Shown piece after piece: positions 260-11,915 of a stretch of DNA of 11,968 nt (the first letter of the stretch is position 1; each line of letters begins with the position of its first letter). The notes beneath the pieces were generated by a model that made no database searches, was not told the origin of the DNA, and saw only the letters and a list, made by a program, of their open reading frames with translations. The position numbers and the translations under genes are program-made. Source of the DNA: Clostridia bacterium (GTDB taxonomy: Bacteria; Bacillota; Clostridia; Peptostreptococcales; Acidaminobacteraceae); assembly GCA_016938815.1 (NCBI GenBank), contig JAFGTX010000137.1:1-11968 (forward strand), read 5' to 3'.

Positions 260-1096
260 CTACTTCTTATACCACGCATACATCATCGTACGCGTCAACG
301 ATTTTTCATAGGGATGAACCTCAGGCATTTCAGCACGGGTTAACCATGAGCCTTCTTTCAGTTCCGATGTATCTAGGGTGATGGTCTCATCACCATCCAG
401 TTCTGCAAAAAATCCAGTGAGCAAGCCACCGGTAATGCCCCACGGCTGACTGTCGTAGTAGCGAATGTTCTTCACTCTGATGCCCACTTCTTCAAAAACT
501 TCCCTACGCACAGCATCTTCAAGGGTTTCTCCAATTTCAACAAAACCGGCAATCAATGCATAGCGGTCGTAATTGCGGTCAGCATATTTCGTAAACAGCA
601 TTTTGTCGCCATTTTCTACCGCGACAATGACCACAGGACTGATTTGAGGATACTTCATCAAGCCACAGCTCGGGCAGGCCATCACCCGTTCATGATCTTT
701 CATGGCCATGGGTTGCCCACATTTGCCGCAGTACCGATTGCTTTGATACCAATCGTAAAGATGCCCCGCCGTATAGGCGATATGTCCGATGACATTATCC
801 GCCATATCAAAAAGTGTACGTCGATCCCTTCTGTCAAAGCCTTCTGTCAGCAAATGACTCTTTGTCCCTAAGTATAGATAATAAGGCGTTTCATCTATGG
901 CAAATAAGTACATAAACTCATCCGCATCACTTCCGATGATTGTCTCTACATCGGAAAGACTGGGATATAAGTCGTTTTCTTCATTTTCGTCAATCACAAA
1001 CTGCATGTCATCAACCACAATCACCTTGCTGTCTCGATCGATCGGGGACTTTCTATAGGTGATGTCCATCTGTTTTGGTGCTATATCTTGTATCAT
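260..1096 (-). CDS. nudC: NAD(+) diphosphatase NudC (Nudix hydrolase with C4 zinc ribbon)
   Basis: The ORF 260..1270 contains a Nudix box GFVEIGETLEDAVRREVFEEVGI (GX5EX7REUXEEXGU) and a CGKCG...CPSCG zinc-ribbon motif upstream of it, which is the NudC architecture. The start is placed at ATG 1096..1094 (MIQDIAPKQMDITYRK...) because it has a GGAG RBS 8 nt upstream. The longer ORF extension (1097..1270) would overlap the 3' end of the upstream yihY-like gene. Stop is TAG at 260..262. Confidence 0.85.
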   Translation of the reverse strand: MIQDIAPKQMDITYRKSPIDRDSKVIVVDDMQFVIDENEENDLYPSLSDVETIIGSDADEFMYLFAIDETPYYLYLGTKSHLLTEGFDRRDRRTLFDMADNVIGHIAYTAGHLYDWYQSNRYCGKCGQPMAMKDHERVMACPSCGLMKYPQISPVVIVAVENGDKMLFTKYADRNYDRYALIAGFVEIGETLEDAVRREVFEEVGIRVKNIRYYDSQPWGITGGLLTGFFAELDGDETITLDTSELKEGSWLTRAEMPEVHPYEKSLTRTMMYAWYKK

Positions 1097-1130
1097 TTTA
1101 TCATCTCCAATTGGTCTGCCATGACTGTAA

Positions 1131-2054
1131 TTATTTGCGCTTTTTATTGCTTCCCTTTTTATTATTACTACGTTTTTCCATACCACACAATACTTTCTTG
1201 ATAATATCACTGTCACGATGTTGACTTTGATGAACGAACCCATCCAACAAAATCGAATTAAGCTCTGCACCTATCATCAGTACGATACCAGTAAAATAAA
1301 GCCAAACCATTAAAATTACCACCGCCGCCAAGGAACCGTAGATAATGGAATATCGTCCAAAGTTGGAGACAAAATAAGAAAAGCCATAAGACATCAACAT
1401 CCAGAAGACGATGGCAAAGGTCGCTCCCTTCCATACATCTTTGAACCTTAGTTTCTTAGTAGGCAAGATCAAGTACATCAACAAAATATCCAGTACCATG
1501 ACGCCGACAATAAAGAACCACCGGACGTAGGAAAAGATGCTAATGAATTCCGCGGACATTGGAATAAAATAACTGACCAAGGACAAAAATTCCTTACCCA
1601 TAATGGATAGAATCGCCAAGACGACGGTCATCACCATGAAGGCAAAGGTATAGAGTATGCCAATCAGCTTCGCTTTAAAAAAACCACGGTAGCATTCCAC
1701 ACGATAAGCGACGTTCAGTGCACGTATCAGTGCTTCGACGCCTCTTGACGCCGTATACAGTGTCACAATCGCCGCCACAGGAATATAACCCGTCTCATCA
1801 AATAGAACGATATCCTTTATGTACTCCGAAATGACCACCGCTGAATCCAAGGGCAAAATACCATTGAGTACTTGAAGCACCATATCCGGGTCCAGAGAAA
1901 AACGTCCAAATATCGACAACAGGAAAATCAGAAAAGGAAAAAGTGACAACAACAAAAAAAATGCCAATTGAGCACTCAATGCCGTAATCTGATGTTCTCT
2001 GTATCTATAACGCAATTCCCAAAGTAAATTACTACAAAAGGATAAATTAAACAT
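1131..2054 (-). CDS. yihY: YihY/BrkB-family integral membrane protein (historically mis-called ribonuclease BN)
   Basis: 307-aa polytopic membrane protein with the family-typical N-terminal 'ITALSAQLAFFLLLSLFPFL' segment followed by multiple TM helices and a short basic C-terminal tail. ATG at 2054..2052 with GGGGGA 5 nt upstream. 34-nt gap to nudC suggests co-transcription. Confidence 0.85.
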   Translation of the reverse strand: MFNLSFCSNLLWELRYRYREHQITALSAQLAFFLLLSLFPFLIFLLSIFGRFSLDPDMVLQVLNGILPLDSAVVISEYIKDIVLFDETGYIPVAAIVTLYTASRGVEALIRALNVAYRVECYRGFFKAKLIGILYTFAFMVMTVVLAILSIMGKEFLSLVSYFIPMSAEFISIFSYVRWFFIVGVMVLDILLMYLILPTKKLRFKDVWKGATFAIVFWMLMSYGFSYFVSNFGRYSIIYGSLAAVVILMVWLYFTGIVLMIGAELNSILLDGFVHQSQHRDSDIIKKVLCGMEKRSNNKKGSNKKRK

Positions 2055-2159: not shown

Positions 2160-2196
2160 ATCAATATGAGCAACAATTATCTAAGGAGGAATGAAC

Positions 2197-3147
2197 ATGG
2201 CAGGAAAATTATCGAAATCCATGCTGCTGATTATTGTTCTTGCACTATTGGCGCTTGCCGGCATGAACAGTTTCTTTTTCCTCGAAAACTCTGAACAAGC
2301 GGTTATTCAGCGTTTTGGAGAAAAAGTCGCAGTCATTGACAAATCGGGTATGAATTTCAAACTACCATTTGTTGATAAAGTTTATATCATCAACACAAAG
2401 GAAATTCGAAGTGTACAATACGGCTACCGTCCGGACAATACACCGACACCAACTAGCGTACCAACTTATGTGGATTATCAAGATGAACAAATCGTATTAA
2501 CAAAAGGCTCTTACCTCGTGAACATCGGCGCAATCATTCAATACCGTATTACGGATGCTGCTGATTATATCTACAATGTTGACGATCAAAGTGGTACCCT
2601 ACGCCTTGCTTTTGAAAGTGTTCTAAGAAGAAACATGCAAAATAAGGATTTGGAAGATGCCTTGATCAACAAGGATTCCATTGCGGTTGAAATCCTACCT
2701 GAGTTAACTCAGAAGGTAAACAGCTATGGCCTCGGTATCACCATTGTAGAAGTTAAATTTACGGATGTATTGCTCCCTGAAAAAGTTCAATTTGCTTATG
2801 ACGACGTCAATATCGCAGAAAACGAGAAAGACGAATTTGTAAGTAAGGCAGCAAAATACACCAATGAAAAATTGCCAGCTGCAAGAGCGGAAGCTTACCA
2901 ACGCATCCAATCCGCAGAAGCTTATAAAGCGGAAAAAATCGCTCAGGCCCGTGGTGACGTAGAAAACTTCTTACAGGTTTACGAAAAGTATAAAGTATCA
3001 CAAGATGTTACAAAAACAAGATTGTATATTGAAACTATGGAACAAATTCTCCAAAATTCAACGCAAAAGTACATTCTTGATATGGATGGCAGCGGTACGG
3101 TTAAATACTTGCCTCTGAATCCAGAAGTCATGAAAGGGGGACAATAA
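2197..3147 (+). CDS. hflK: HflK-like SPFH/band-7 family membrane protein
   Basis: Single N-terminal TM helix (LLIIVLALLALAG), then an SPFH domain with HflK-type motifs (QAVIQRFGEK, IQYRITDAADYIYNV, FESVLRRNMQN, ITIVEVKFTDVLLPEKVQFAYDDVNIAE, AEAYKAEKIAQARGDVENFL, TKTRLYIETMEQIL, KYLPL). The start is placed at ATG 2197 (6 nt after AAGGAGG 2184-2190). The ORF-track start ATG 2191 abuts the RBS with no spacer. Confidence 0.85.
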   Translation: MAGKLSKSMLLIIVLALLALAGMNSFFFLENSEQAVIQRFGEKVAVIDKSGMNFKLPFVDKVYIINTKEIRSVQYGYRPDNTPTPTSVPTYVDYQDEQIVLTKGSYLVNIGAIIQYRITDAADYIYNVDDQSGTLRLAFESVLRRNMQNKDLEDALINKDSIAVEILPELTQKVNSYGLGITIVEVKFTDVLLPEKVQFAYDDVNIAENEKDEFVSKAAKYTNEKLPAARAEAYQRIQSAEAYKAEKIAQARGDVENFLQVYEKYKVSQDVTKTRLYIETMEQILQNSTQKYILDMDGSGTVKYLPLNPEVMKGGQ

Positions 3148-3148
3148 G

Positions 3149-4177
3149 ATGCAATTCAATAATCAAAACCCCAATGGTCAAAATTTCAACGATTTTCAAG
3201 AAAAGACAAGGCAACGTGCCGAAGACATTGCAAAAAACGCAAAAAAAGCCGCTAAACGTGGCATAGCCGCACTAATTATACTCTTTGTACTAATCGGTGC
3301 CAGCAGTTTCTTCTACATCGTTGCAGAAGACGAAGTCGCTACTGTCAAACAACTGGGCGAAACCAAAAAAGTCATCGTCGATGTGGACAATGACACAGCG
3401 GCTAGTCAAAGTCAACTTGATCCTAAATTCGCTAATATCGAAATCGTACGCGATAAGGGTCTCTTCTTCAAGATTCCTTTCATCACAACGGTTGAAAAAG
3501 ATACCAGCAAGTTGATTACCTATATCTCAAACTCTGCGCAAATCAATACAAAAGACAAGATCAAATACCAAATCTCGATGTTTGCACAATGGGAAATTTC
3601 TCATCCAGGTCTTTACAGATCATCACTTGGCAACGTTCAAAGAGCCAATGCCAATATCGATGAAGTAGCCTATGCCGTTGTTATCGAGAAAATCAATGGA
3701 TTGACAAGCAGAGAATTCTTAACAGACAAAGAAGCCCTTTATACAGCACTTGACGGCGCCCTTGTAGAGCTTAATGAAAAAATGGCCCCTAAAGGGATCG
3801 TCTTAAAGGACATCGAAGTTTACAGAACTATTTTACCAGATTCAAACATCGAATCGACTTATAAGAAAATGGTGGCAGAACGTGGTGCCATCGCTCAGAA
3901 AAAACGTTCTGAAGGTCAAGAGCTCTATCAAAATACGGTAGCTGACACTGACAGAAAAGTGGCTGAAACTATTGCTGAATCGATTGAGACTTCTGAAAAA
4001 ATCATCGGTGAAGCGGATGCATCTGCTCTTGAAATCTATGCAGAAGCCTTCAGTAAGGACCCTGAATTCTACGAATACTGGAGAACGCTCAAGTCTTATG
4101 AGAAGACCATCAATTCAGATACGGTCATCTACATGGATAAGAACAACGATTACTTGAAATATTTTAGAGGTAATTAG
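3149..4177 (+). CDS. hflC: HflC-like SPFH/band-7 family membrane protein
   Basis: ATG is 1 nt after the hflK-like TAA, with GGGGGA 7 nt upstream, indicating translational coupling. Features: TM helix IAALIILFVLIGASSFFYIV, an SPFH core, and a C-terminal HflC-type segment (AERGAIAQKKRSEGQELYQN...IIGEADASALEIYAEAFSKDPEFYEYWRTLKSYEKTI). It has an unusually Q/N-rich cytoplasmic N-terminus (MQFNNQNPNGQNFNDFQEK...). Confidence 0.8.
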   Translation: MQFNNQNPNGQNFNDFQEKTRQRAEDIAKNAKKAAKRGIAALIILFVLIGASSFFYIVAEDEVATVKQLGETKKVIVDVDNDTAASQSQLDPKFANIEIVRDKGLFFKIPFITTVEKDTSKLITYISNSAQINTKDKIKYQISMFAQWEISHPGLYRSSLGNVQRANANIDEVAYAVVIEKINGLTSREFLTDKEALYTALDGALVELNEKMAPKGIVLKDIEVYRTILPDSNIESTYKKMVAERGAIAQKKRSEGQELYQNTVADTDRKVAETIAESIETSEKIIGEADASALEIYAEAFSKDPEFYEYWRTLKSYEKTINSDTVIYMDKNNDYLKYFRGN

Positions 4178-4204
4178 TCCATCCAACTCATAATTTTGAT
4201 ATAG

Positions 4205-4238
4205 AAAATCCAACCGAATCATCCGGTTGGATTTTTTT
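4205..4238. terminator. Shared bidirectional rho-independent terminator between the convergent hflC-like gene and the giant ATPase gene
   Basis: Perfect 10-bp stem AATCCAACCG (4207-4216) / CGGTTGGATT (4224-4233) with a 7-nt loop. It is followed by T7 (4232-4238) on the plus strand and preceded by A4, so it gives a TTTTC run when read on the minus strand. It sits 28 nt after the hflC-like stop and 20 nt after the giant gene's stop. Confidence 0.8.
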
Positions 4239-4257
4239 AGGTCTGTCTTATGAACCC

Positions 4258-7200
4258 TTAGTTATTTGCCTTTAAAGTTTCATATACATTCTTTATTTTT
4301 TCTATATGTGCTGTCAATTCTTGAAGGCTAAGGACTGCTTGTCCAACTTTGTCATCACCTTTCACCAGTTTGTTCTTATTAAAGAGTCCTTTAATTTCTT
4401 CATAACGCTGGTGCTCGTCTTCTGTTAGACAGTCATTGATTTCCTTCCACTTCAGCATATTGGATTCTGCACCGTTTGTAAGGGTTTGACAATCATTTTC
4501 ATAACTGCCCACCACTTGTTTGAAGAGTTCTTCCTCATTCATCACGGAAACGACACGCTCGGCAATTTTGTTCATATTACGGTAGGATCCCTGTAATTTA
4601 AATGCAGGTTCCATACGATACTCTTCAGCTTGTGCCGCTGAAGCAATATAAGCCATATTGACCTTTAAAACGATATCTCTAACCTTACTTAGTTTATGAA
4701 GAACCTCAATGTATTCGTTGAGTTCATCTGAACTATAGTTTCCTTCCAGCTCTACCGATTCGCGATCCGCACCGGATGCCATTGCCACTAAGCCATAGAT
4801 ATCAGAAGGATTTCGATTGGTCAATTTTGATAGCACCGGATTCGAAGTTAAGCAGTTTTCAATATAACTCAGCTTAAAAGCCTCTTCATTCTCCCGCAAC
4901 ATATCCCCTAGGTTATAAACGTCAGCACGGTTGGCCAACATATCCGGAATTTTAAATTTCTCACCACTCTCCGTATATGGATTCCCTGCCATAACGACTG
5001 CAATTTTCTTGCCGCGAAGGTCAAAGGTTTGTCCAACACCATCATAGACCCCTTCAATTTTACGCTGTCCATCACATAAGGAAATGAATTTCTGTAAAAA
5101 TTCAGGATGACAATGTTGAATATCATCGACATAGAGCATGATGTTATTGCCCATTTTAAGCGCTATGTTCAACTTTCGAAGCTCTTCTTTGGCACTGGAA
5201 TGACCTGCTTTTTCAGGATCCAGAGAGGTTATCTCATTGCCTAATGATGGACCGTTCACCTTTACCATAATAAAGCCCAGTCTATTGGCCACATACTCCA
5301 TTAAGGTTGTTTTACCATAGCCCGGCGGAGATACAAGGAGCAATAACCCCATAAGGTCTGTTCTCTTGTCATTTCCAACTACGCCCATTTGTTTGGCTAG
5401 GTTATCACCAATCAATGGCAGGTAGACTTTATCAATCAGCTTATTTCTTACAAAAGAAGTAAGGACGGTTGGTCTAAAGTCATCTAGGCGCAATGCCTCT
5501 TTGAAAGATTTAATGAGATCTGATTTAAGCGCCTGATAAGCCATATAGTCTGGTACAGTATTTTCAGTGAAGTGCTTCATCTTTTGCATGAATGCCGTAT
5601 AGTGAAGGGTATAATTCCCGTTATCCACTTGCCCATGGTTTCCAACAAGCCCCTCGATAGTGAGCTTGGTACCCGACTGGATGACGTTATCCAACTTGGC
5701 ATCTTTCTCGATTAACAAAACGATGACTTCATCCAAAACCCCGGCAATATCTGACGCCTCTAAAATGATTGGGCTATTTTCTTCTTGCTGTGCTTGCCAG
5801 TAGGCAAAAACCCATTCTTTCGCCAAGTAAAACTGACCTTCCAAATCCTTTTCACTCGCTTTCAATGAGTTTTCAAAGGTTTCCAGTGCTTTCACATCTC
5901 GAAGATAAGCCATAAAACCGTCATAGACTTGCTTGGCCAGCATGCTGATTACAAAAGTATCACCTGTCATCAACTCTTTACACAAATAGTCTGCAGCTTC
6001 AGGGATGCTGTCTGCCGAATAAAAAGGCAATTCATCATAGGCCGTTTCAAATTGCTCGATGATTAAAGGCAAATAGTTTTCGATGCGTGGTGGCGTCGCA
6101 AAAAAACCGCTGATTTTTGCCAACTCTGAGAGTCGGGCTGCCATTTGCTCTTTCGTCGTCTTATCCACTAAACGATTCCAAAACAGACGTGCCATAGCAC
6201 GTACTTCACTTCTATAAATCAGCAAATCGACTGTATGGAAGAGTTCTAGTAAGCCTCGCAAAATTTTTGAACCGTCTTCGTCGTGAACACCTTTGGTATA
6301 GCCCTCTTGGTAACGCTTTTCCATATAGGCTCTAACGGTTTCCTTAAGTTGACTTTCCGACATATCATAAAGGGCTCCTCGATCATAACCCTTCCCATCT
6401 GCCATCTCAAAAATAGAATAGGCCAGATATTCACCACGATAAACCTTACTATTTTCCGAAATGATGCTTTGATCAAATACATGACGATACTGCTCGATTT
6501 TAGGTTCCTGCACGCGATCCCAAAAATCCGTACCTGTTATGTGATAGTATAAGTGTTGATCCTTCTGAACAATGGACAAATCAATGGTCTTTCTATTCAC
6601 AGAGAAATGGTGTTGTCCGAATTTAATGACATCCTTACCCTGTAAATAGAGTTCCTGACGATCTTTCAACTGACGAATGGTATTCTCTTTTAAGGCTTTT
6701 AACTTTGAACTTAATTCATCGGCTTTGACCGTATCGCCCAAAGCCCGCAACTCCGAGGTAATATCACGCACTTTTTCTGCCATGATGTCGGTTGCCAGAT
6801 AGCCATTGATCTTTTCGACAGAATCAAATCCTGCCACGCGATTTTCAATACCGCTGATAATCCTTGTTGCAGAGTCAAACAATGTCACTAATTTCTTATT
6901 CAACTTATCCAAGAGAGTCTGTTTGCGTGTCTCAAAGGTACTGTAAATTTCCTCACGCTTTTCGCCTAGCTGCGTCAAGTACTCATCAAACTCAGAAAAT
7001 TTGCCCTCGAGCTCTTGAATCTGTACCATCACCTTATTTAGGTAGCTATCGCACTTTTCTTCGGTATCCGCAACTTCTAGATAATTTACAACCGCTTGTC
7101 CCAGTAGGCGCATTTGTGCACTAAACTGAATCGCCATCTCGCTTTTATTGAAGCTTTCAATTTTCGTTTTCAGCTTTGCCTTGGCATTGTTAATTTGAGA

Positions 7201-9138
7201 AAACAGTGCTGAAATCTTTTCGATGATTTCGGTCGAAACCGTTGGATCATCTATCTTAAAGTTGCTGACAATGTCCATCAAAAGCTCTAAATCCAATGAT
7301 GTCTTGTTCATTTTTTCTGCCAGTTCTTGACCTTCTTGGGATTTTGAAACGTCATCAATCCCCTCCTGTAAGGTCTCTACCGCTTCTTCATAGGGTTTTA
7401 AGCCATCAGGACCAATTAAAAACTGAATGCATTGATTTGAAAAGATATCATTTTGTTCTTTAACGCTTGTGTCAAGGGATTCAACCAGTTCTAAGTCCAC
7501 ATACATGAGGTCTCTTAAGGACGCTATTTTTCCACGCAGACTACGGATGTCGCCGAGCACCTCAACGTATTCATAAACATTCTCAAAGCTGCCATATGCC
7601 AGTTTCTTTAGCAGCACCTCTGTCTCTTCTTCTGTTTCAGTGACTTGCTTAATGGTCGCATTTTTTATTCTCGTCACCTTTTCGAATTCGCCAATGGCAA
7701 AAGTTGCCGTTTCTTTTACTTCTTTTAGCACATCCGATAGGCCAAATGCCTCCTCTTTACCAATCCAAAAGTAAGCATCCAATATACCTTGGGTCTCTTT
7801 TACGATATCCATGTAGACGCTGGCATAACTTTCACCCTTTTGAATCATCTTGCTTACACCACGACAAGCGGCAATACAAGTCACCACATCTTTGTTGCCG
7901 ATTTTATAAAGCGCGGAATCATTATTGCCCTCTAACTGATAGTCTTTGCCGACATAAGGCGTTTGCCAAACTTGCAGGGCGTGATTTTTCCGTGGTTCGT
8001 CTTCATGACGAAAAACAACCATTTCTCCATTATTGAAATGAGAATACCCGCTACATACAATAGGCGTATCAATGGTTTGTTCGATTACATTGTAAGAATA
8101 AATCAGGTAGGTACCGCTATCCATGTTATAGAAAATGTACTGATAATCTTCACCATTGGAAGATGCGATCAATTCATCGAATACCGGCTGTTCTACAGGC
8201 ACTTCGAAAATTTTATACTCGCCATTTTGAAGATAGTAGCCTTGAGGGAAAATCAATCCGTGTCCACCTGGCAGCAACTTGCAAGTATGGGCTATAGAAT
8301 CAATCCTTAAAACGTTTTTCAGTTTATTGTTGAAGACAAAGTAACGGTAGTCCTTTTCCTTGTAAGGCAATATTTTAAGAATGATTAACTGACCTAAATC
8401 CACATATGAAATTTCGGCATCATCCAAGTTTTGATCAGGGTCTTCAACGTCCTCTGAATAAATTCCTTTGCCTGTTTCCGTATTGTCTTCCACCTTAATA
8501 GTCAGGTCCCCGCCAATTGTTTCAACAAAAACCTTATCCAAAATGGAGACATGAGGGTGAAGTCCCGTCCGCTGGTTATCGCGGGTCGCTTTGACAAAAT
8601 CAAGTTCATTGCCTAGATTAAACTTCACTTCATGGTCACTTCTATTGTCGACGTATTTTAGATGATTTTCTTCAATCTGCCATTTGAAGACTTTGATGTC
8701 CATGACATTGTCACTGGTTTGAAAAATCATATAGAAATACGGCCCTAAGATGCTAAATTTTGCAAAGAAGGTGTTTTTGTAGTATCGGTATAGATCATCA
8801 AAGTCTTTTAGGAATTGTTGATCCTCGATAAATCCTAAAGATTCTTCTGTAAAACTACCTTCTACATAACGGTATACCGCAAAAACATCTTTCAAGGCCA
8901 CTTTTTGTTTCAAACCTATATGAACGTTGTATCCAAATAGGAAAAAGTCCCCTACCGGTGCCATATCTCGTGGAATACAATTGTTCTCCGTCAGAATCCG
9001 TTCACTGGATAGAAGTTTGCTTTCTATGGCGCCGAAAACTTCTTTTCTAACCGCATTCAGTTGTTCCGCTCTGGCAATCAAGTCGTCTCCCTGCTTTTGA
9101 AGACGACTTTTTATTACTTCATAGGTTCCATTATTCAT
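4258..9138 (-). CDS. Giant (1626 aa) uncharacterized multidomain protein with a MoxR/AAA_5-type AAA+ ATPase module near the C-terminus; third gene of the NfeD-flotillin operon
   Basis: Uninterrupted 4.9-kb ORF. ATG at 9138..9136 has a GGAG RBS 6 nt upstream, and this RBS lies inside the last flotillin codons (flotillin stop TAA at 9140-9142, i.e. a 1-nt gap). The ORF track started it at an in-frame TTG at 9150. P-loop LLLVSPPGYGKTTL at aa ~1272-1285 (nt ~5320). Walker B IMLYVDDIQH. Then ...KIAVVMAGNPYTESGEKFKIPDMLANRADVY, which matches the MoxR/AAA_5 '...vlATqNP.E..G...LP.AlLDRF' pattern. The ~1240 aa before the ATPase are a beta-rich, Y/N/G-rich N-terminal region (aa ~150-450) and a long helical/coiled-coil middle; no family is recognisable by eye. 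Confidence 0.85.
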   Translation of the reverse strand: MNNGTYEVIKSRLQKQGDDLIARAEQLNAVRKEVFGAIESKLLSSERILTENNCIPRDMAPVGDFFLFGYNVHIGLKQKVALKDVFAVYRYVEGSFTEESLGFIEDQQFLKDFDDLYRYYKNTFFAKFSILGPYFYMIFQTSDNVMDIKVFKWQIEENHLKYVDNRSDHEVKFNLGNELDFVKATRDNQRTGLHPHVSILDKVFVETIGGDLTIKVEDNTETGKGIYSEDVEDPDQNLDDAEISYVDLGQLIILKILPYKEKDYRYFVFNNKLKNVLRIDSIAHTCKLLPGGHGLIFPQGYYLQNGEYKIFEVPVEQPVFDELIASSNGEDYQYIFYNMDSGTYLIYSYNVIEQTIDTPIVCSGYSHFNNGEMVVFRHEDEPRKNHALQVWQTPYVGKDYQLEGNNDSALYKIGNKDVVTCIAACRGVSKMIQKGESYASVYMDIVKETQGILDAYFWIGKEEAFGLSDVLKEVKETATFAIGEFEKVTRIKNATIKQVTETEEETEVLLKKLAYGSFENVYEYVEVLGDIRSLRGKIASLRDLMYVDLELVESLDTSVKEQNDIFSNQCIQFLIGPDGLKPYEEAVETLQEGIDDVSKSQEGQELAEKMNKTSLDLELLMDIVSNFKIDDPTVSTEIIEKISALFSQINNAKAKLKTKIESFNKSEMAIQFSAQMRLLGQAVVNYLEVADTEEKCDSYLNKVMVQIQELEGKFSEFDEYLTQLGEKREEIYSTFETRKQTLLDKLNKKLVTLFDSATRIISGIENRVAGFDSVEKINGYLATDIMAEKVRDITSELRALGDTVKADELSSKLKALKENTIRQLKDRQELYLQGKDVIKFGQHHFSVNRKTIDLSIVQKDQHLYYHITGTDFWDRVQEPKIEQYRHVFDQSIISENSKVYRGEYLAYSIFEMADGKGYDRGALYDMSESQLKETVRAYMEKRYQEGYTKGVHDEDGSKILRGLLELFHTVDLLIYRSEVRAMARLFWNRLVDKTTKEQMAARLSELAKISGFFATPPRIENYLPLIIEQFETAYDELPFYSADSIPEAADYLCKELMTGDTFVISMLAKQVYDGFMAYLRDVKALETFENSLKASEKDLEGQFYLAKEWVFAYWQAQQEENSPIILEASDIAGVLDEVIVLLIEKDAKLDNVIQSGTKLTIEGLVGNHGQVDNGNYTLHYTAFMQKMKHFTENTVPDYMAYQALKSDLIKSFKEALRLDDFRPTVLTSFVRNKLIDKVYLPLIGDNLAKQMGVVGNDKRTDLMGLLLLVSPPGYGKTTLMEYVANRLGFIMVKVNGPSLGNEITSLDPEKAGHSSAKEELRKLNIALKMGNNIMLYVDDIQHCHPEFLQKFISLCDGQRKIEGVYDGVGQTFDLRGKKIAVVMAGNPYTESGEKFKIPDMLANRADVYNLGDMLRENEEAFKLSYIENCLTSNPVLSKLTNRNPSDIYGLVAMASGADRESVELEGNYSSDELNEYIEVLHKLSKVRDIVLKVNMAYIASAAQAEEYRMEPAFKLQGSYRNMNKIAERVVSVMNEEELFKQVVGSYENDCQTLTNGAESNMLKWKEINDCLTEDEHQRYEEIKGLFNKNKLVKGDDKVGQAVLSLQELTAHIEKIKNVYETLKANN
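4891..5403 (-). other. AAA+ (MoxR/AAA_5-like) ATPase domain within the giant protein, approximately aa 1250-1420
   Basis: Walker A SPPGYGKTT (Lys codon within 5302-5322). Walker B YVDDIQ at 5116-5133 (an Asp-Asp variant of the usual Asp-Glu). NP...G and NRADVY motifs downstream. Domain boundaries are approximate. Confidence 0.6.
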
Positions 9139-9139
9139 G

Positions 9140-11164
9140 TTATTCTCCAAACGTTGAACCCACTAATTTTGCTGGTAAATCCGCCACGCCTGCTTTATTC
9201 ACTGTATCTAATAATTTCCCTAACATGGTACGGTCACCGCCACTTGCAGAGGACATCATCTTCGTAATGGCGCCTGAAATCGTTAAGTGCATTAGGTCTT
9301 CTGACGATAAGTTGAATCTACCTACTAGTGTTTGCAATTGCTTTTGGAAATAGTCCGCATCACCTGTAATCAACGTTTCCTTAATATCCGTCATGACATC
9401 ACTGTTGCCGACAAATCTATCCACTGCCTTACCTTGCGTGATCGAACCAATGATCTTATCAAAGAACATCGTCTCACCACCGACGATATCAATTTTTGCT
9501 GTTTTAAGCGCTTCTTGGATAACAGCGGCTTGAGCGTCTGCAATATCTTTTTGAATGGCAATTTTAGCAAGTTCAATATCTTTTTCTTTTGCCAATTCCA
9601 ACTTGAACTCTTCATGGTCTCTGCCCACTTCGTCCAGTAACTTCATGCTATTCGCCTTTTCTTTGATACCTTCTGCTTCTGAAAGATACTTACGTTTAAG
9701 GATATCCGCTTCAACGATACCATCTTTTTCTTTTACTTCTACCTTCGCTGTTTGTCCTTTTGCTTCTGCCATTGCTTTTGATTCGATAACCTTTGCGTCG
9801 GCAATACCTTCAGCAGAACGATCAATTACTTTAGCATCTGCCAGTACCTTAATGGCTTCCGCCTCTTTTTGAGAAGCTTTAAGTTTTGCATCCGCGTCAA
9901 TGATTGTTTTTTCAGCTTCTTTTTCGGCCGCTAATTTTGCCGCCTCAGCCGCTTTTACTTCTCTTACTTTTCTTGTTTCCGCATCTTCTTCCGCTTTCTT
10001 AATCGCTACGTTTTTCACACGATCCGCTTCAGCAAATGCACGGGTATCTTTGATTTTTTCTTCTTCTGCTACTGTATCTTTTTCAACAGCGACTCTTTCG
10101 CGAATCACCACTTGGACATTTTTCTTTTCAACTTCAACTTGCTTTTCTTTATCGATGGTTGCTAAATCGACCAACTTGTCTTTTTCTGTTCTCTCTAACA
10201 AACGTTTACGTTCAACACGTTCTATCTCAACCGCTTCCGTACTTTCTTTTGATTTGGCTGCAATGATGATTTGACGTTGCTTGTTTTCTTCTGCTACGCC
10301 AATTTCCTCTTCTGTTTTTACACGAGCGATTTCTGCTTTATAGCGCTCTTCTTGAGCAACTTTTTCGGCTTCTGCATTTTCTCTGGAGTTGATTACTGAA
10401 ATTTCACGTCGTTGCTTGGCCTCTGCTTCTGCCTGTTGCTTTTCAAGTTCTAAAATCGCCTCTTTGGCAGCAACGTCCTGATTCTTGATTGTCTTTTCCT
10501 TTTCACGCTGAATTTCATTGGCTAAAATCATTTGCTTGGCGGTCAATTCAGTGATCTTCTTAATACCTTCCGCATCCAAGATATTGTCCGCATTCAACAC
10601 ATTAATATCTGTTTGTTCCAAATAATCGATTGCCGCATCGTCAAGAACATAACCGTTCAGGTCGGTTCCGATAATCTGAAGAATTTCGTGTTTAAAACTT
10701 TCTCTGTCTGTGTAAAGTTCCACAAAATCAAATTTTTTACCTACTGTTTTTAAGGCTTCCGAGAACTTCGCATCGAAAAATGCCATCAGCGTTTCTGGAT
10801 CAGAAGCTTTTTGACAACCTAAGGATTGAGCTACCTTTAGAACATCTTCTTGGGTTTGATTAACACGTACAAAGAAGGCAACACGTATGTCAGCCCTTAA
10901 ATTATCCTGACAAATCAGACCATCCTTGCCCTCTCTAGCAATTTCAACCCTCTTTACCGAAATATCCATGATTTCAAAACGGTGTAAAATCGGTATAACG
11001 AACATGCCACCAAAACTTACAATTTGTCCACCAACCCCATTACGGATGATAACTTTTGATTGCTCAACTTTTTTATAGAATCTCGCGAATAGAGCTAACG
11101 CCCCCATAATTGTAATTAAAACTACGCCTATTGTTACCAGTGTCATTTGTGATATAAATCCCAT
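9140..11164 (-). CDS. Flotillin-family SPFH protein (FloT/YqiK-like), 674 aa with an extended E/A/K-rich coiled coil
   Basis: ATG 11164..11162 with GGAGG 9 nt upstream. N-terminal TM (LVTIGVVLITIMGALALFA), then an SPFH domain (VIIRNGVGGQIVSFGGMFVIPILHRFEIMDISVKRVEI...). Then ~250 aa of EA-rich heptad-like low-complexity sequence (EAEAKQRRE..., AEEDAETRKVREVKAAEAAKLAAEKEAEK, ADAKVI repeats), followed by a C-terminal flotillin tail. This is the classic flotillin architecture. Confidence 0.9.
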   Translation of the reverse strand: MGFISQMTLVTIGVVLITIMGALALFARFYKKVEQSKVIIRNGVGGQIVSFGGMFVIPILHRFEIMDISVKRVEIAREGKDGLICQDNLRADIRVAFFVRVNQTQEDVLKVAQSLGCQKASDPETLMAFFDAKFSEALKTVGKKFDFVELYTDRESFKHEILQIIGTDLNGYVLDDAAIDYLEQTDINVLNADNILDAEGIKKITELTAKQMILANEIQREKEKTIKNQDVAAKEAILELEKQQAEAEAKQRREISVINSRENAEAEKVAQEERYKAEIARVKTEEEIGVAEENKQRQIIIAAKSKESTEAVEIERVERKRLLERTEKDKLVDLATIDKEKQVEVEKKNVQVVIRERVAVEKDTVAEEEKIKDTRAFAEADRVKNVAIKKAEEDAETRKVREVKAAEAAKLAAEKEAEKTIIDADAKLKASQKEAEAIKVLADAKVIDRSAEGIADAKVIESKAMAEAKGQTAKVEVKEKDGIVEADILKRKYLSEAEGIKEKANSMKLLDEVGRDHEEFKLELAKEKDIELAKIAIQKDIADAQAAVIQEALKTAKIDIVGGETMFFDKIIGSITQGKAVDRFVGNSDVMTDIKETLITGDADYFQKQLQTLVGRFNLSSEDLMHLTISGAITKMMSSASGGDRTMLGKLLDTVNKAGVADLPAKLVGSTFGE

Positions 11165-11191
11165 TAAATCCTGCCTCCATCAATAATTGTT

Positions 11192-11818
11192 TTATAATTT
11201 TCTTATGTAATACACTTCTTTTTCTTGATCTTTTTCCAAAACGAATGCCACTTCATTTTTCTCAAAAGAATCGTCTTCACATTTTGTTTTTACATTGATT
11301 ACGATTGACGTATCACCCGCTTCAATAATGGCTTGACCGATTTGGTCTCCTTCCAAATTACTTTTCAAGGTGCAGGTTTTGTTCAGCACCCTACACGCCA
11401 CATTATTTTTTGATTTCTGTTCAAAGACATGTGTTCTCAAGAATTTGATTTGGCCCTTTGCAGTTAGAAGACTCAGCGCAAATGCCGGTATAAGCAAAAC
11501 ACCTGCCATTTTTCCACCTGCTGCAATCGGCAAAAAATACATAAGCATCGTCAGTAGCCAAAAGGTCAAAGCCAACATGCTGAGCACCAAGGTCATCGGC
11601 ACTTGTCCAATGTTCATAAATACTGCCAGTGCATTCAGCAATCCACTGCTTTCAAGGCCCTCTGTTTCAACCTCAATATCTAAGTCAAAAAAGTCAAAGT
11701 CAAATAAGCCTAAACTTGCAAGCACCCAATAGCCTTGTGTCAAAATCAATAAACTTGTTGGAATAATATTTACGCCTTGAAATGCAAATTTTATGAGTTC
11801 CGTTTTGTTCCCCCCCAT
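11192..11818 (-). CDS. NfeD-like / YqiJ-like (DUF1449-type) membrane protein with C-terminal OB-fold; canonical flotillin partner
   Basis: 208 aa. A DFDFFDLDIEVE acidic segment is followed by a hydrophobic hairpin (ALAVFMNIGQVPMTLVLSMLALTFWLLTMLMYFLPIAA...LLIPAFALSLL) and a beta-strand-rich C-terminus (ACRVLNKTCTLKS...GDTSIVINVKTKCEDDSFEKNEVAFVLEKDQEKEVYYI), consistent with an NfeD short-form OB domain. It is immediately upstream of flotillin (27-nt gap), as in yqiJ-yqiK and yuaF-floT. The ATG is embedded in a G7 run and has an in-frame TGA directly upstream. Confidence 0.75.
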   Translation of the reverse strand: MGGNKTELIKFAFQGVNIIPTSLLILTQGYWVLASLGLFDFDFFDLDIEVETEGLESSGLLNALAVFMNIGQVPMTLVLSMLALTFWLLTMLMYFLPIAAGGKMAGVLLIPAFALSLLTAKGQIKFLRTHVFEQKSKNNVACRVLNKTCTLKSNLEGDQIGQAIIEAGDTSIVINVKTKCEDDSFEKNEVAFVLEKDQEKEVYYIRKL

Positions 11819-11869
11819 TCATTTGTATTGTTTTTTATCAAACAACCGTCTATCCGATAACTGCCTCCA

Positions 11870-11915
11870 ATTATAAAAAAATGTTGTTTTATCAGACAAT
11901 TACTATTATAACAAA
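11870..11915 (-). promoter_or_regulatory. Putative tandem promoters for the NfeD-flotillin-giant ATPase operon
   Basis: Read on the minus strand there are two candidate promoters. First: an extended -10 TGTTATAAT (plus 11905-11913) with a poor -35. Second, 30 nt further downstream: TTGTCT (plus 11894-11899), 18-nt spacer, TATAAT (plus 11870-11875). Both lie within the 150-nt AT-rich region upstream of the NfeD-like start and give a 5' leader of ~45-85 nt. Confidence 0.4.

Follow-up and report, generated by a model that had tools for sequence, protein, structure and literature searches.

The window analysed here is an 11,968-nucleotide stretch of DNA from a member of the Clostridia (contig JAFGTX010000137.1), and it carries a three-gene operon coding for an NfeD-like protein, a flotillin and a giant ATPase. 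The first gene is a short NfeD gene resembling yqiJ and yuaF (positions 11192 to 11818, minus strand), whose 208-residue product has hydrophobic segments at approximately residues 64-122 followed by a beta-rich, soluble C-terminal domain. The second gene (9140 to 11164, minus strand) encodes a 674-residue flotillin of the YqiK type, an SPFH protein recognized by its match to Pfam Band_7 and by its similarity to YqiK. The third gene (4258 to 9138, minus strand) encodes a 1626-residue ATPase that is assigned to the DUF3686 family by its Pfam matches. All three genes run in the same direction in the list of open reading frames (ORFs), which confirms the ORFs, order and strand of the operon proposed in an earlier note on this DNA that was made from the sequence alone.

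Direct reading of the junction between the flotillin and ATPase genes gives TTT GGA GAA TAA C ATG. The stop codon of the flotillin gene (TAA, 9142-9140) is separated by a single base (C9139) from the ATG of the ATPase gene (9138-9136), and a ribosome-binding site (RBS) with the sequence GGAGA (9144 to 9148, minus strand) is located within the last flotillin codons, 5 nt upstream of this ATG. The one-nucleotide spacing and the placement of the RBS inside the flotillin coding sequence were both described in the earlier note and are correct. The ORF listing lengthens the ATPase reading frame to a TTG codon at 9150 (1630 residues). We assign the start to the ATG rather than to this TTG because the ATG is preceded by the RBS and agrees with the database, where the product starting at 9138 is 100% identical to a deposited uncultured-Clostridia-bacterium protein (P0001).

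The flotillin matches Pfam Band_7 with 30.1 bits (cutoff 23.6) and shares 31% identity with E. coli YqiK over 445 residues (E=2e-51). It has a single membrane segment at its N terminus (residues 1-31), followed by a coiled coil from approximately residue 200 to 520 that is rich in Ala, Glu and Lys (49% of residues 201-520) and then by a C-terminal region. Source annotations name this protein either 'flotillin family protein' or YqiK. A comparison with the NCBIfam FloT equivalog model gives 17 bits and does not reach the cutoff of 700, and by sequence the protein is a member of the flotillin family and not a FloT equivalog. A sequence search of the PDB with the flotillin returned no match.

The small upstream protein on its own has no significant match in Pfam. 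Sub-cutoff similarities are to YqiJ_N (E=0.045) and, for its orthologues, to NfeD (E=0.0024) and YqiJ_OB (E=0.19). Alignment of a profile made from 17 orthologues with E. coli YqiJ by hhalign gives a probability of 85.5% (E=5.7e-6, 132 columns), and the orthologue in Hymenobacter is annotated by NCBI as a DUF1449 family protein. These comparisons give moderate support for a C-terminal domain of the YqiJ/NfeD type. On the identity to YqiK and the profile alignment with YqiJ, the first two genes are an NfeD-flotillin pair of the yqiJ-yqiK type.

The arrangement of flotillin and ATPase genes is conserved far beyond chance, because a flotillin gene is found immediately upstream of the ATPase gene in 90 of 93 evaluable loci (~97%) spread over at least eight lineages. 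The loci were collected by scanning genome contigs with a single protein (yielding four close Clostridia loci), by a tblastn search of plasmids, by a profile search, by looking up the encoding contigs and by a scan of metagenomes. In the genome and plasmid set, all 21 of 21 independent loci have the flotillin gene directly before the ATPase gene on the same strand. These loci represent Bacillota, Bacteroidota, Gamma- and Alphaproteobacteria, Actinomycetota, Deinococcota, Myxococcota and Acidobacteriota. They include other Clostridia, Hymenobacter, Pseudomonas plasmid pQBR103, Proteus, Vibrio, Photobacterium, Halomonas, Streptomyces, Nonomuraea, Deinococcus, Myxococcus, an acidobacterium, an alphaproteobacterium and one very distant metagenomic member (26% identity). 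The flotillins of these 21 loci are 30-89% identical to that of the window, and the surrounding genes are unrelated between loci. The metagenome scan added 80 loci, 72 of which have enough upstream sequence to be evaluated, and flotillin is upstream in 69 of the 72.

A YqiJ-like gene was detected in 45 of these 69 metagenome loci, with the remainder consisting mostly of cut contigs and a divergent clade that has longer flotillins. When the search was reversed, close homologues of the flotillin were found mostly on contigs equal in size to those carrying ATPase homologues. Pairwise distances among the flotillins and among the ATPases correlate with r=0.75 over 76 pairs, compared to a maximum of 0.21 in 999 permutations, a correlation that is confounded by shared phylogeny. 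The ATPase-linked flotillins have lengths of 630-815 residues. Inheritance of the three genes as a unit extends across phyla, and the suggestion that they form a functional module is well supported by the evaluable loci, whose ~97% linkage refutes sporadic adjacency.

The distance between the flotillin and ATPase genes is not conserved to the same extent. Among the 69 metagenome loci it extends from a slight overlap up to 2263 nt, and gaps of 600-2260 nt are present in nine of them (L038, L049, L051, L052, L077, L079, L095, L096 and L104). The ORFs within these gaps are mutually unrelated except for two pairs, and judged by eye from their sequences they resemble small genes of the mobile or selfish kind (GIY-YIG-like, IS200/RayT-like, DUF559-like and PDDEXK/YhcG-like). 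The spacer tolerates insertions while the gene pair stays together. A conserved fourth gene between flotillin and ATPase is ruled out by the lack of relationship among the gap ORFs outside the two pairs, and translational coupling as a trait of the family is ruled out by the wide variation in intergenic distance. Because spacing varies from overlap to more than 2 kb, and close Clostridia relatives alone have a tight junction, the single-base spacer seen here is a local feature, and the obligatory co-expression and stoichiometric coupling that had been read from it go further than the family allows.

The giant ATPase has several recognizable parts, contrary to the initial view that its P-loop is the only one. 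It matches Pfam DUF3686 (PF12458) with 589 bits (cutoff 25, E=6e-177) at residues 19-457, covering profile positions 1-448 of 448, as well as DUF7902 with 86 bits (E=1.7e-24) at residues 579-661 and Pfam AAA with 32.8 bits (E=1e-7). The family layout, in which DUF3686 and DUF7902 are followed by a C-terminal AAA domain with the motifs PPGYGKT, hhhDDIQH and GNPY, is present in the window protein. The motifs start at residues 1271 (PPGYGKT), 1335 (hhhDDIQH) and 1385 (GNPY), as in approximately 70 full-length representatives. The family comprises 1303 clusters at 50% identity with E<=1e-3, including 406 with E<=1e-30. No convincing transmembrane segment was found in the ATPase, and no protease, DNA-binding or nuclease domain was found with Pfam.

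Two AlphaFold2 models of the ATPase, each built from a 45-sequence alignment, have a mean predicted local distance difference test (pLDDT) score of ~87. Residues 1-400 (7939 to 9138, minus strand; mean pLDDT of the model 86.8) are predicted to form an N-terminal helix (residues 5-35) and a beta-propeller-like domain of ~25 strands (residues 41-392). Foldseek comparison of this domain with the PDB returns mostly propeller-containing proteins, including Elp1, IFT-A, WDR91, Vps18, the clathrin N-domain, prolyl oligopeptidase and Kelch, with E values of 1.6e-6 to 1e-3, probabilities up to 1.0 and template modelling (TM) scores of just 0.1-0.3. Residues 401-830 (6649 to 7938, minus strand), which include DUF7902, are predicted to form long helical bundles or a coiled coil. 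Foldseek alignments to IFT-A subunits, clathrin heavy chain, Vps18 and nucleoporins cover the propeller together with the helical region (residues 1-700). In the models, this part of the protein recalls the membrane-coat architecture of a propeller followed by helices, a likeness that at TM scores of 0.1-0.3 is a lead and not a result.

Residues 831-1000 (6139 to 6648, minus strand) form a conserved middle domain, modelled as a small beta-sheet with helices at pLDDT values of 85-95 and also evident in the alignments. Several of its residues are near-invariant in the alignments and in a conservation profile of 76 sequences, namely G841, F845, G869-T870, S894-E895, R901 and G950-x-H952-D953-x-D955. 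There is no Pfam domain between residues 700 and 1250, and the G-x-H-D-x-D motif could be a metal-binding or catalytic site. In the models a variable helical stretch separates this domain from the AAA+ module.

The AAA+ module (residues 1226-1580; 4399 to 5463, minus strand) consists of an alpha/beta domain and a helical C-terminal part, and is the best-conserved region of the protein. It includes a Walker A motif, PPGYGKTT (residues 1271-1278; 5305 to 5328, minus strand), whose PPGYGKT core is found in 70 of 71 full-length representatives and does not vary in one of the family alignments (A1). The Walker B motif, LYVDDIQH (residues 1335-1342; 5113 to 5136, minus strand), has Asp-Asp in place of the usual Asp-Glu, and this substitution is shared by essentially the whole family, including members at 27% identity. 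Downstream of Walker B are the sensor-1 residue N1386 and a candidate Arg finger, R1404. D1338, D1339, N1386 and R1404 each have a majority frequency of at least 95%, and Walker A, Walker B, sensor 1 and R1404 are kept in members with as little as ~27% identity. Purifying selection acts strongly on the ATPase motifs.

The predicted fold of the AAA+ module is nearest to those of the MoxR proteins CbbQ and NorQ, with sequence identity of just ~14-15%. The models include a hairpin between Walker B and sensor 1 (strands 581-586 and 589-594) and none in helix 2. A match to AAA_5 (PF07728, cutoff 22) remains below threshold for both the whole protein (18.4 bits) and the isolated domain (21.6 bits), while many homologues carry a precomputed PF07728 match. 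The MoxR/AAA_5 assignment made in the earlier note is therefore borne out in part: the fold agrees with it, and the sub-cutoff AAA_5 score, the Asp-Asp Walker B and the absence of a VWA partner from the module do not. Sequence searches of the PDB with the ATPase find only matches of ~40-75 residues around the P-loop.

Databases give these proteins a different role. In Pfam, DUF3686 carries the description 'ATPase involved in DNA repair', and the name 'DNA repair ATPase' is passed on by NCBI; with this role, the adjacency to flotillin would be incidental. Apart from the label itself, the sequence evidence for this view consists of weak P-loop similarities to RuvB, which span ~45 residues around Walker A and score 20 bits against a cutoff of 282. 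The protein has no detected DNA-binding or nuclease domain, its conserved neighbourhood has no DNA-repair genes, its invariant partners are membrane proteins, and our literature search found no paper that mentions DUF3686 or ties the name to flotillin. A function in DNA repair is highly improbable, and the name, which is carried by thousands of proteins, has no visible support and is probably misleading.

No well-characterized family emerged from the family, structure and literature searches that would account for the giant protein without flotillin. A description of the operon itself does exist. The third component had been presented as undescribed, which it is not, because Ravi et al. 2024 (mSystems 9:e00847-23, PMC11237479, with an earlier bioRxiv version) report YqiJ/YuaF, flotillin and a "beta-propeller + coiled-coil + AAA+" protein in one operon to which PspA is an optional addition. 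These authors state that abbreviated operons lacking PspA are 'more widely distributed'. Their supplementary table lists a Dokdonia operon of CesT_Tir, YqiJ-YuaF, Band-7+coiled-coil+flotillin and Betapropeller+Coiled-coil+AAA-ATPase, with Dokdonia donghaensis ANH61663.1 as the example neighbourhood, and their treatment of the system is one paragraph without experiments. The membership of the window ATPase in the same family as the Dokdonia protein is inferred from the shared architecture and from the Bacteroidota homologue. The ATPase is unmentioned in an SPFH survey of P. aeruginosa (PMC13086221) and in Hinderhofer et al. 2009 (PMC2636767), and our literature search found no experimental work on it.

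The wider gene context provides clues regarding the process that the module serves. In Hymenobacter (L009), whose ATPase is 45% identical to that of the window, the gene order is Tir-like chaperone, PspA, DUF1449 protein, flotillin and ATPase. On Pseudomonas plasmid pQBR103, the module comes after a PspA/yjf-type cluster. Clostridium intestinale has LytTR/LiaF-like genes near the module, Streptomyces has TerD, and ion-transport genes are likewise neighbours in a minority of loci. LytTR-family regulators accompanied by a LiaF-like membrane protein or a histidine kinase are located at 3990-5157 of the Clostridium intestinale locus (L008) and at 11891-13358 of the Hymenobacter locus. These flanking genes may regulate the operon in response to stress.

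SPFH proteins assemble into large cages attached to the membrane, NfeD proteins bind the SPFH protein they are paired with through their C-terminal domains, and AAA+ proteins of the MoxR type, which normally act with a VWA partner, remodel specific complexes. The giant ATPase is predicted to be soluble and has an intact, strongly constrained AAA+ site, and its two partners are membrane-anchored. With moderate confidence, we favour the reading that the giant protein is a cytoplasmic, ATP-driven remodeller that acts on or with the flotillin/NfeD assembly in envelope stress or membrane maintenance. Ravi et al. 2024 (PMC11237479) draw the same inference for the same architecture. Presumably, the flotillin would, like other SPFH proteins, oligomerize with its NfeD partner into an assembly at the cytoplasmic side of the membrane, and the ATPase would dock on this assembly through its propeller or helical part. 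ATP might then be used to build up the flotillin scaffold, to take it apart, to open, recycle or reshape it, or to work on clients that are held there. Such activity would belong to an envelope-stress or membrane-maintenance response, and in some lineages the module is extended with a CesT/Tir-PspA pair.

The relationship between scaffold and enzyme might also be reversed, as in the logic of the earlier note. By analogy with HflK/C and FtsH, the flotillin/NfeD assembly would recruit or cage the ATPase, whose substrate lies elsewhere, for example in PspA/ESCRT-III-like polymers, which it would process in the manner of Vps4, or in damaged membrane proteins. SPFH cages that enclose FtsH are an established precedent for this arrangement, and in Hymenobacter, on pQBR103 and in Dokdonia the module is combined with PspA and a CesT/Tir-like chaperone. 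However, 19 of the 21 genome and plasmid loci have no PspA nearby, and the ATPase has neither a protease domain, nor an MIT-like domain, nor a membrane anchor. We regard this explanation, the chief rival of the one that we favour, as rather doubtful.

Several observations weigh against the remodeller that we favour. Physical interaction, oligomeric state and ATPase activity are all predictions from sequence, which fits an ATPase acting on the scaffold and a scaffold regulating the ATPase alike. The conserved module includes no VWA partner, and the Asp-Asp Walker B may indicate slow hydrolysis or switch-like behaviour. The link to envelope stress rests on a minority of contexts, because PspA is found within 7 kb in just 2 of the 21 genome and plasmid loci. 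Finally, three metagenome loci (L042, L043 and L098) have an ATPase homologue without flotillin in the available sequence; the DNA upstream of it encodes a multi-pass membrane protein of 343 residues in L042 and a sensor histidine kinase in L098, and contains no ORF in L043. These three are either rare uncoupled members or rearranged loci.

A more specific and more tentative version of the remodeller is that the DUF3686 protein is a machine dedicated to flotillin scaffolds, comparable to Vps4 acting on ESCRT-III or NSF acting on SNAREs but directed at SPFH cages. Its head, made of propeller and helices, would hold on to the flotillin dome, and the opening, closing or recycling of the dome would be the work of a MoxR/dynein-like ring. 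This version is possible, although not the outcome that we would expect. If true, it would mean that flotillin microdomains are energy-consuming structures that are actively remodelled, and not passive scaffolds.

A role in conflict, one of two functions that the earlier note had entertained, would have the propeller sense infection or membrane damage while the ATPase and flotillin execute a membrane-directed form of abortive infection. The patchy spread of the module over phyla and its carriage on megaplasmids are suggestive of horizontal transfer, and some loci have insertions of small selfish genes. Defence systems often include large NTPases with sensor-like domains, and an AAA protein with IetA-like PADLOC matches is present upstream on the source contig. 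Against these points, PADLOC matches neither the flotillin nor the NfeD-like protein, its P-loop match to the ATPase stays below threshold (E=0.0055), and PHROGs has nothing besides a P-loop match. There is no homologue in 50,697 phage records or among IMG/VR contigs, and the domain searches revealed no effector domain of the nuclease, protease, TIR, Sir2 or pore-forming kind. The flanks are mostly housekeeping, transport or signalling genes, and not defence islands. With no evidence for it from PADLOC, phage records, IMG/VR, domains or flanks, we consider anti-phage defence unlikely.

The role of bacterial flotillins is a long-standing question, and to our knowledge the flotillin models that have been studied (E. 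coli YqiK, B. subtilis FloT and FloA, and S. aureus FloA) have no enzymatic partner. The pairing described here suggests that SPFH assemblies can be actively remodelled, and the module offers an experimental handle, since mutants of the ATPase should alter the behaviour of the flotillin. For flotillin biology it is an attractive and testable lead. Because the operon class was already catalogued in 2024 by comparative genomics, what the present analysis contributes is confirmation, quantification, and detail on structure and motifs. Specifically, we add the ~97% linkage over 93 loci, the placement of the AAA+ fold, the conserved Asp-Asp Walker B, the middle-domain motif, the finding of no phage copies and the lack of support for the 'DNA repair' name.

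Additional sequence features are located at both ends of the operon. A promoter-like sequence, TTGTCT-18 nt-TATAAT (11870 to 11899, minus strand), is present 5′ of the first gene. It is the first-listed of six sites in the region that match at 10 of 12 positions and it is well placed. The scan as a whole gives no more sites than expected from shuffled sequence, and the assignment of this site as the operon promoter is suggestive. At the other end, between the ATPase gene and the convergent hflC gene, there is an inverted repeat (4205 to 4235) with 15-nt arms that are 93% complementary, a 1-nt loop, and runs of A and T at its flanks. It is missing from the output of a simple terminator scan, and on its sequence features it is likely a bidirectional intrinsic terminator. 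Together, the promoter-like site and the terminator-like repeat enclose the three genes. No Rfam families were found in the window.

The hflK-hflC pair is located on the plus strand (2191-4177), convergent to the operon, and is identified by matches to TIGR01933 (215 bits) and TIGR01932 (141 bits). Its proximity brings three SPFH genes within 9 kb. Membership of hflK and hflC in the system is ruled out by the absence of this adjacency from other Clostridia loci (L007 and L008), and their position beside the operon is probably a coincidence. Farther away are a NudC-like NUDIX gene (260-1270, minus strand), with a Zn-ribbon and a NUDIX domain, and a gene for a BrkB/YihY-family membrane protein (1131-2054, minus strand). 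The NUDIX ORF as derived mechanically has 336 residues and a GTG start and overlaps the BrkB/YihY gene. On the source contig this gene is called with 278 residues, placing its real start near 1096.

Just beyond the right end of the window, the same contig (L005, 337-7135) carries further genes on the same strand directly upstream of the operon. These encode a DUF4280 protein, a 700-residue WHD/nSTAND/AAA ATPase with IetA-like and TRIP13-like PADLOC matches (E=1e-40), and three proteins of 226, 150 and 1032 residues with no match to a Pfam or PADLOC family. They may constitute a separate conflict or injection-type locus, and they are not kept beside the module elsewhere.

Among known systems, the E. 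coli yqiJ-yqiK and B. subtilis yuaF-floT operons, which represent the SPFH2 subgroup of Hinderhofer et al. 2009 (PMC2636767), are homologous to the first two window genes and have the same order and strand. E. coli K-12 lacks the third gene, with the sibD/ibsD locus coming after yqiK instead, and its YqiK has 553 residues compared to 630-815 for the ATPase-linked flotillins. Relative to the MoxR remodellers CbbQ and NorQ, and to the related AAA modules of midasin and dynein, the window ATPase is approximately six times larger owing to an N-terminal extension of ~1250 residues. It also differs from this class in having D1338-D1339 where the canonical Walker B is hhhhDE, and in the lack of a VWA/MIDAS partner in the conserved module, as the only VWA gene seen is an unrelated, divergent one near the Myxococcus locus.

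HflK/HflC-FtsH shares with the window operon the idea of an SPFH scaffold paired with an AAA+ enzyme at the membrane. FtsH has a transmembrane anchor and an M41 protease domain, whereas the window ATPase has neither, and the comparison with this complex made in the earlier note stays an analogy. Vps4/ESCRT-III and PspA/IM30 provide a conceptual parallel only, that of an AAA+ protein recycling a membrane-bound polymer, and PspA adjoins the module in some genomes. The system of Ravi et al. 2024 has the same architecture. The CesT/Tir-PspA pair of its full form is absent from the window and from the longer source contig, as is from the window the PLD hydrolase that is present in some Proteobacteria. 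The window operon corresponds to the 'abbreviated' form, and the Hymenobacter locus, with its Tir-like chaperone and PspA, corresponds to the full form. The window operon is thus a further member, from a metagenome-assembled genome of the Clostridia, of an operon class that is already catalogued and experimentally uncharacterized.

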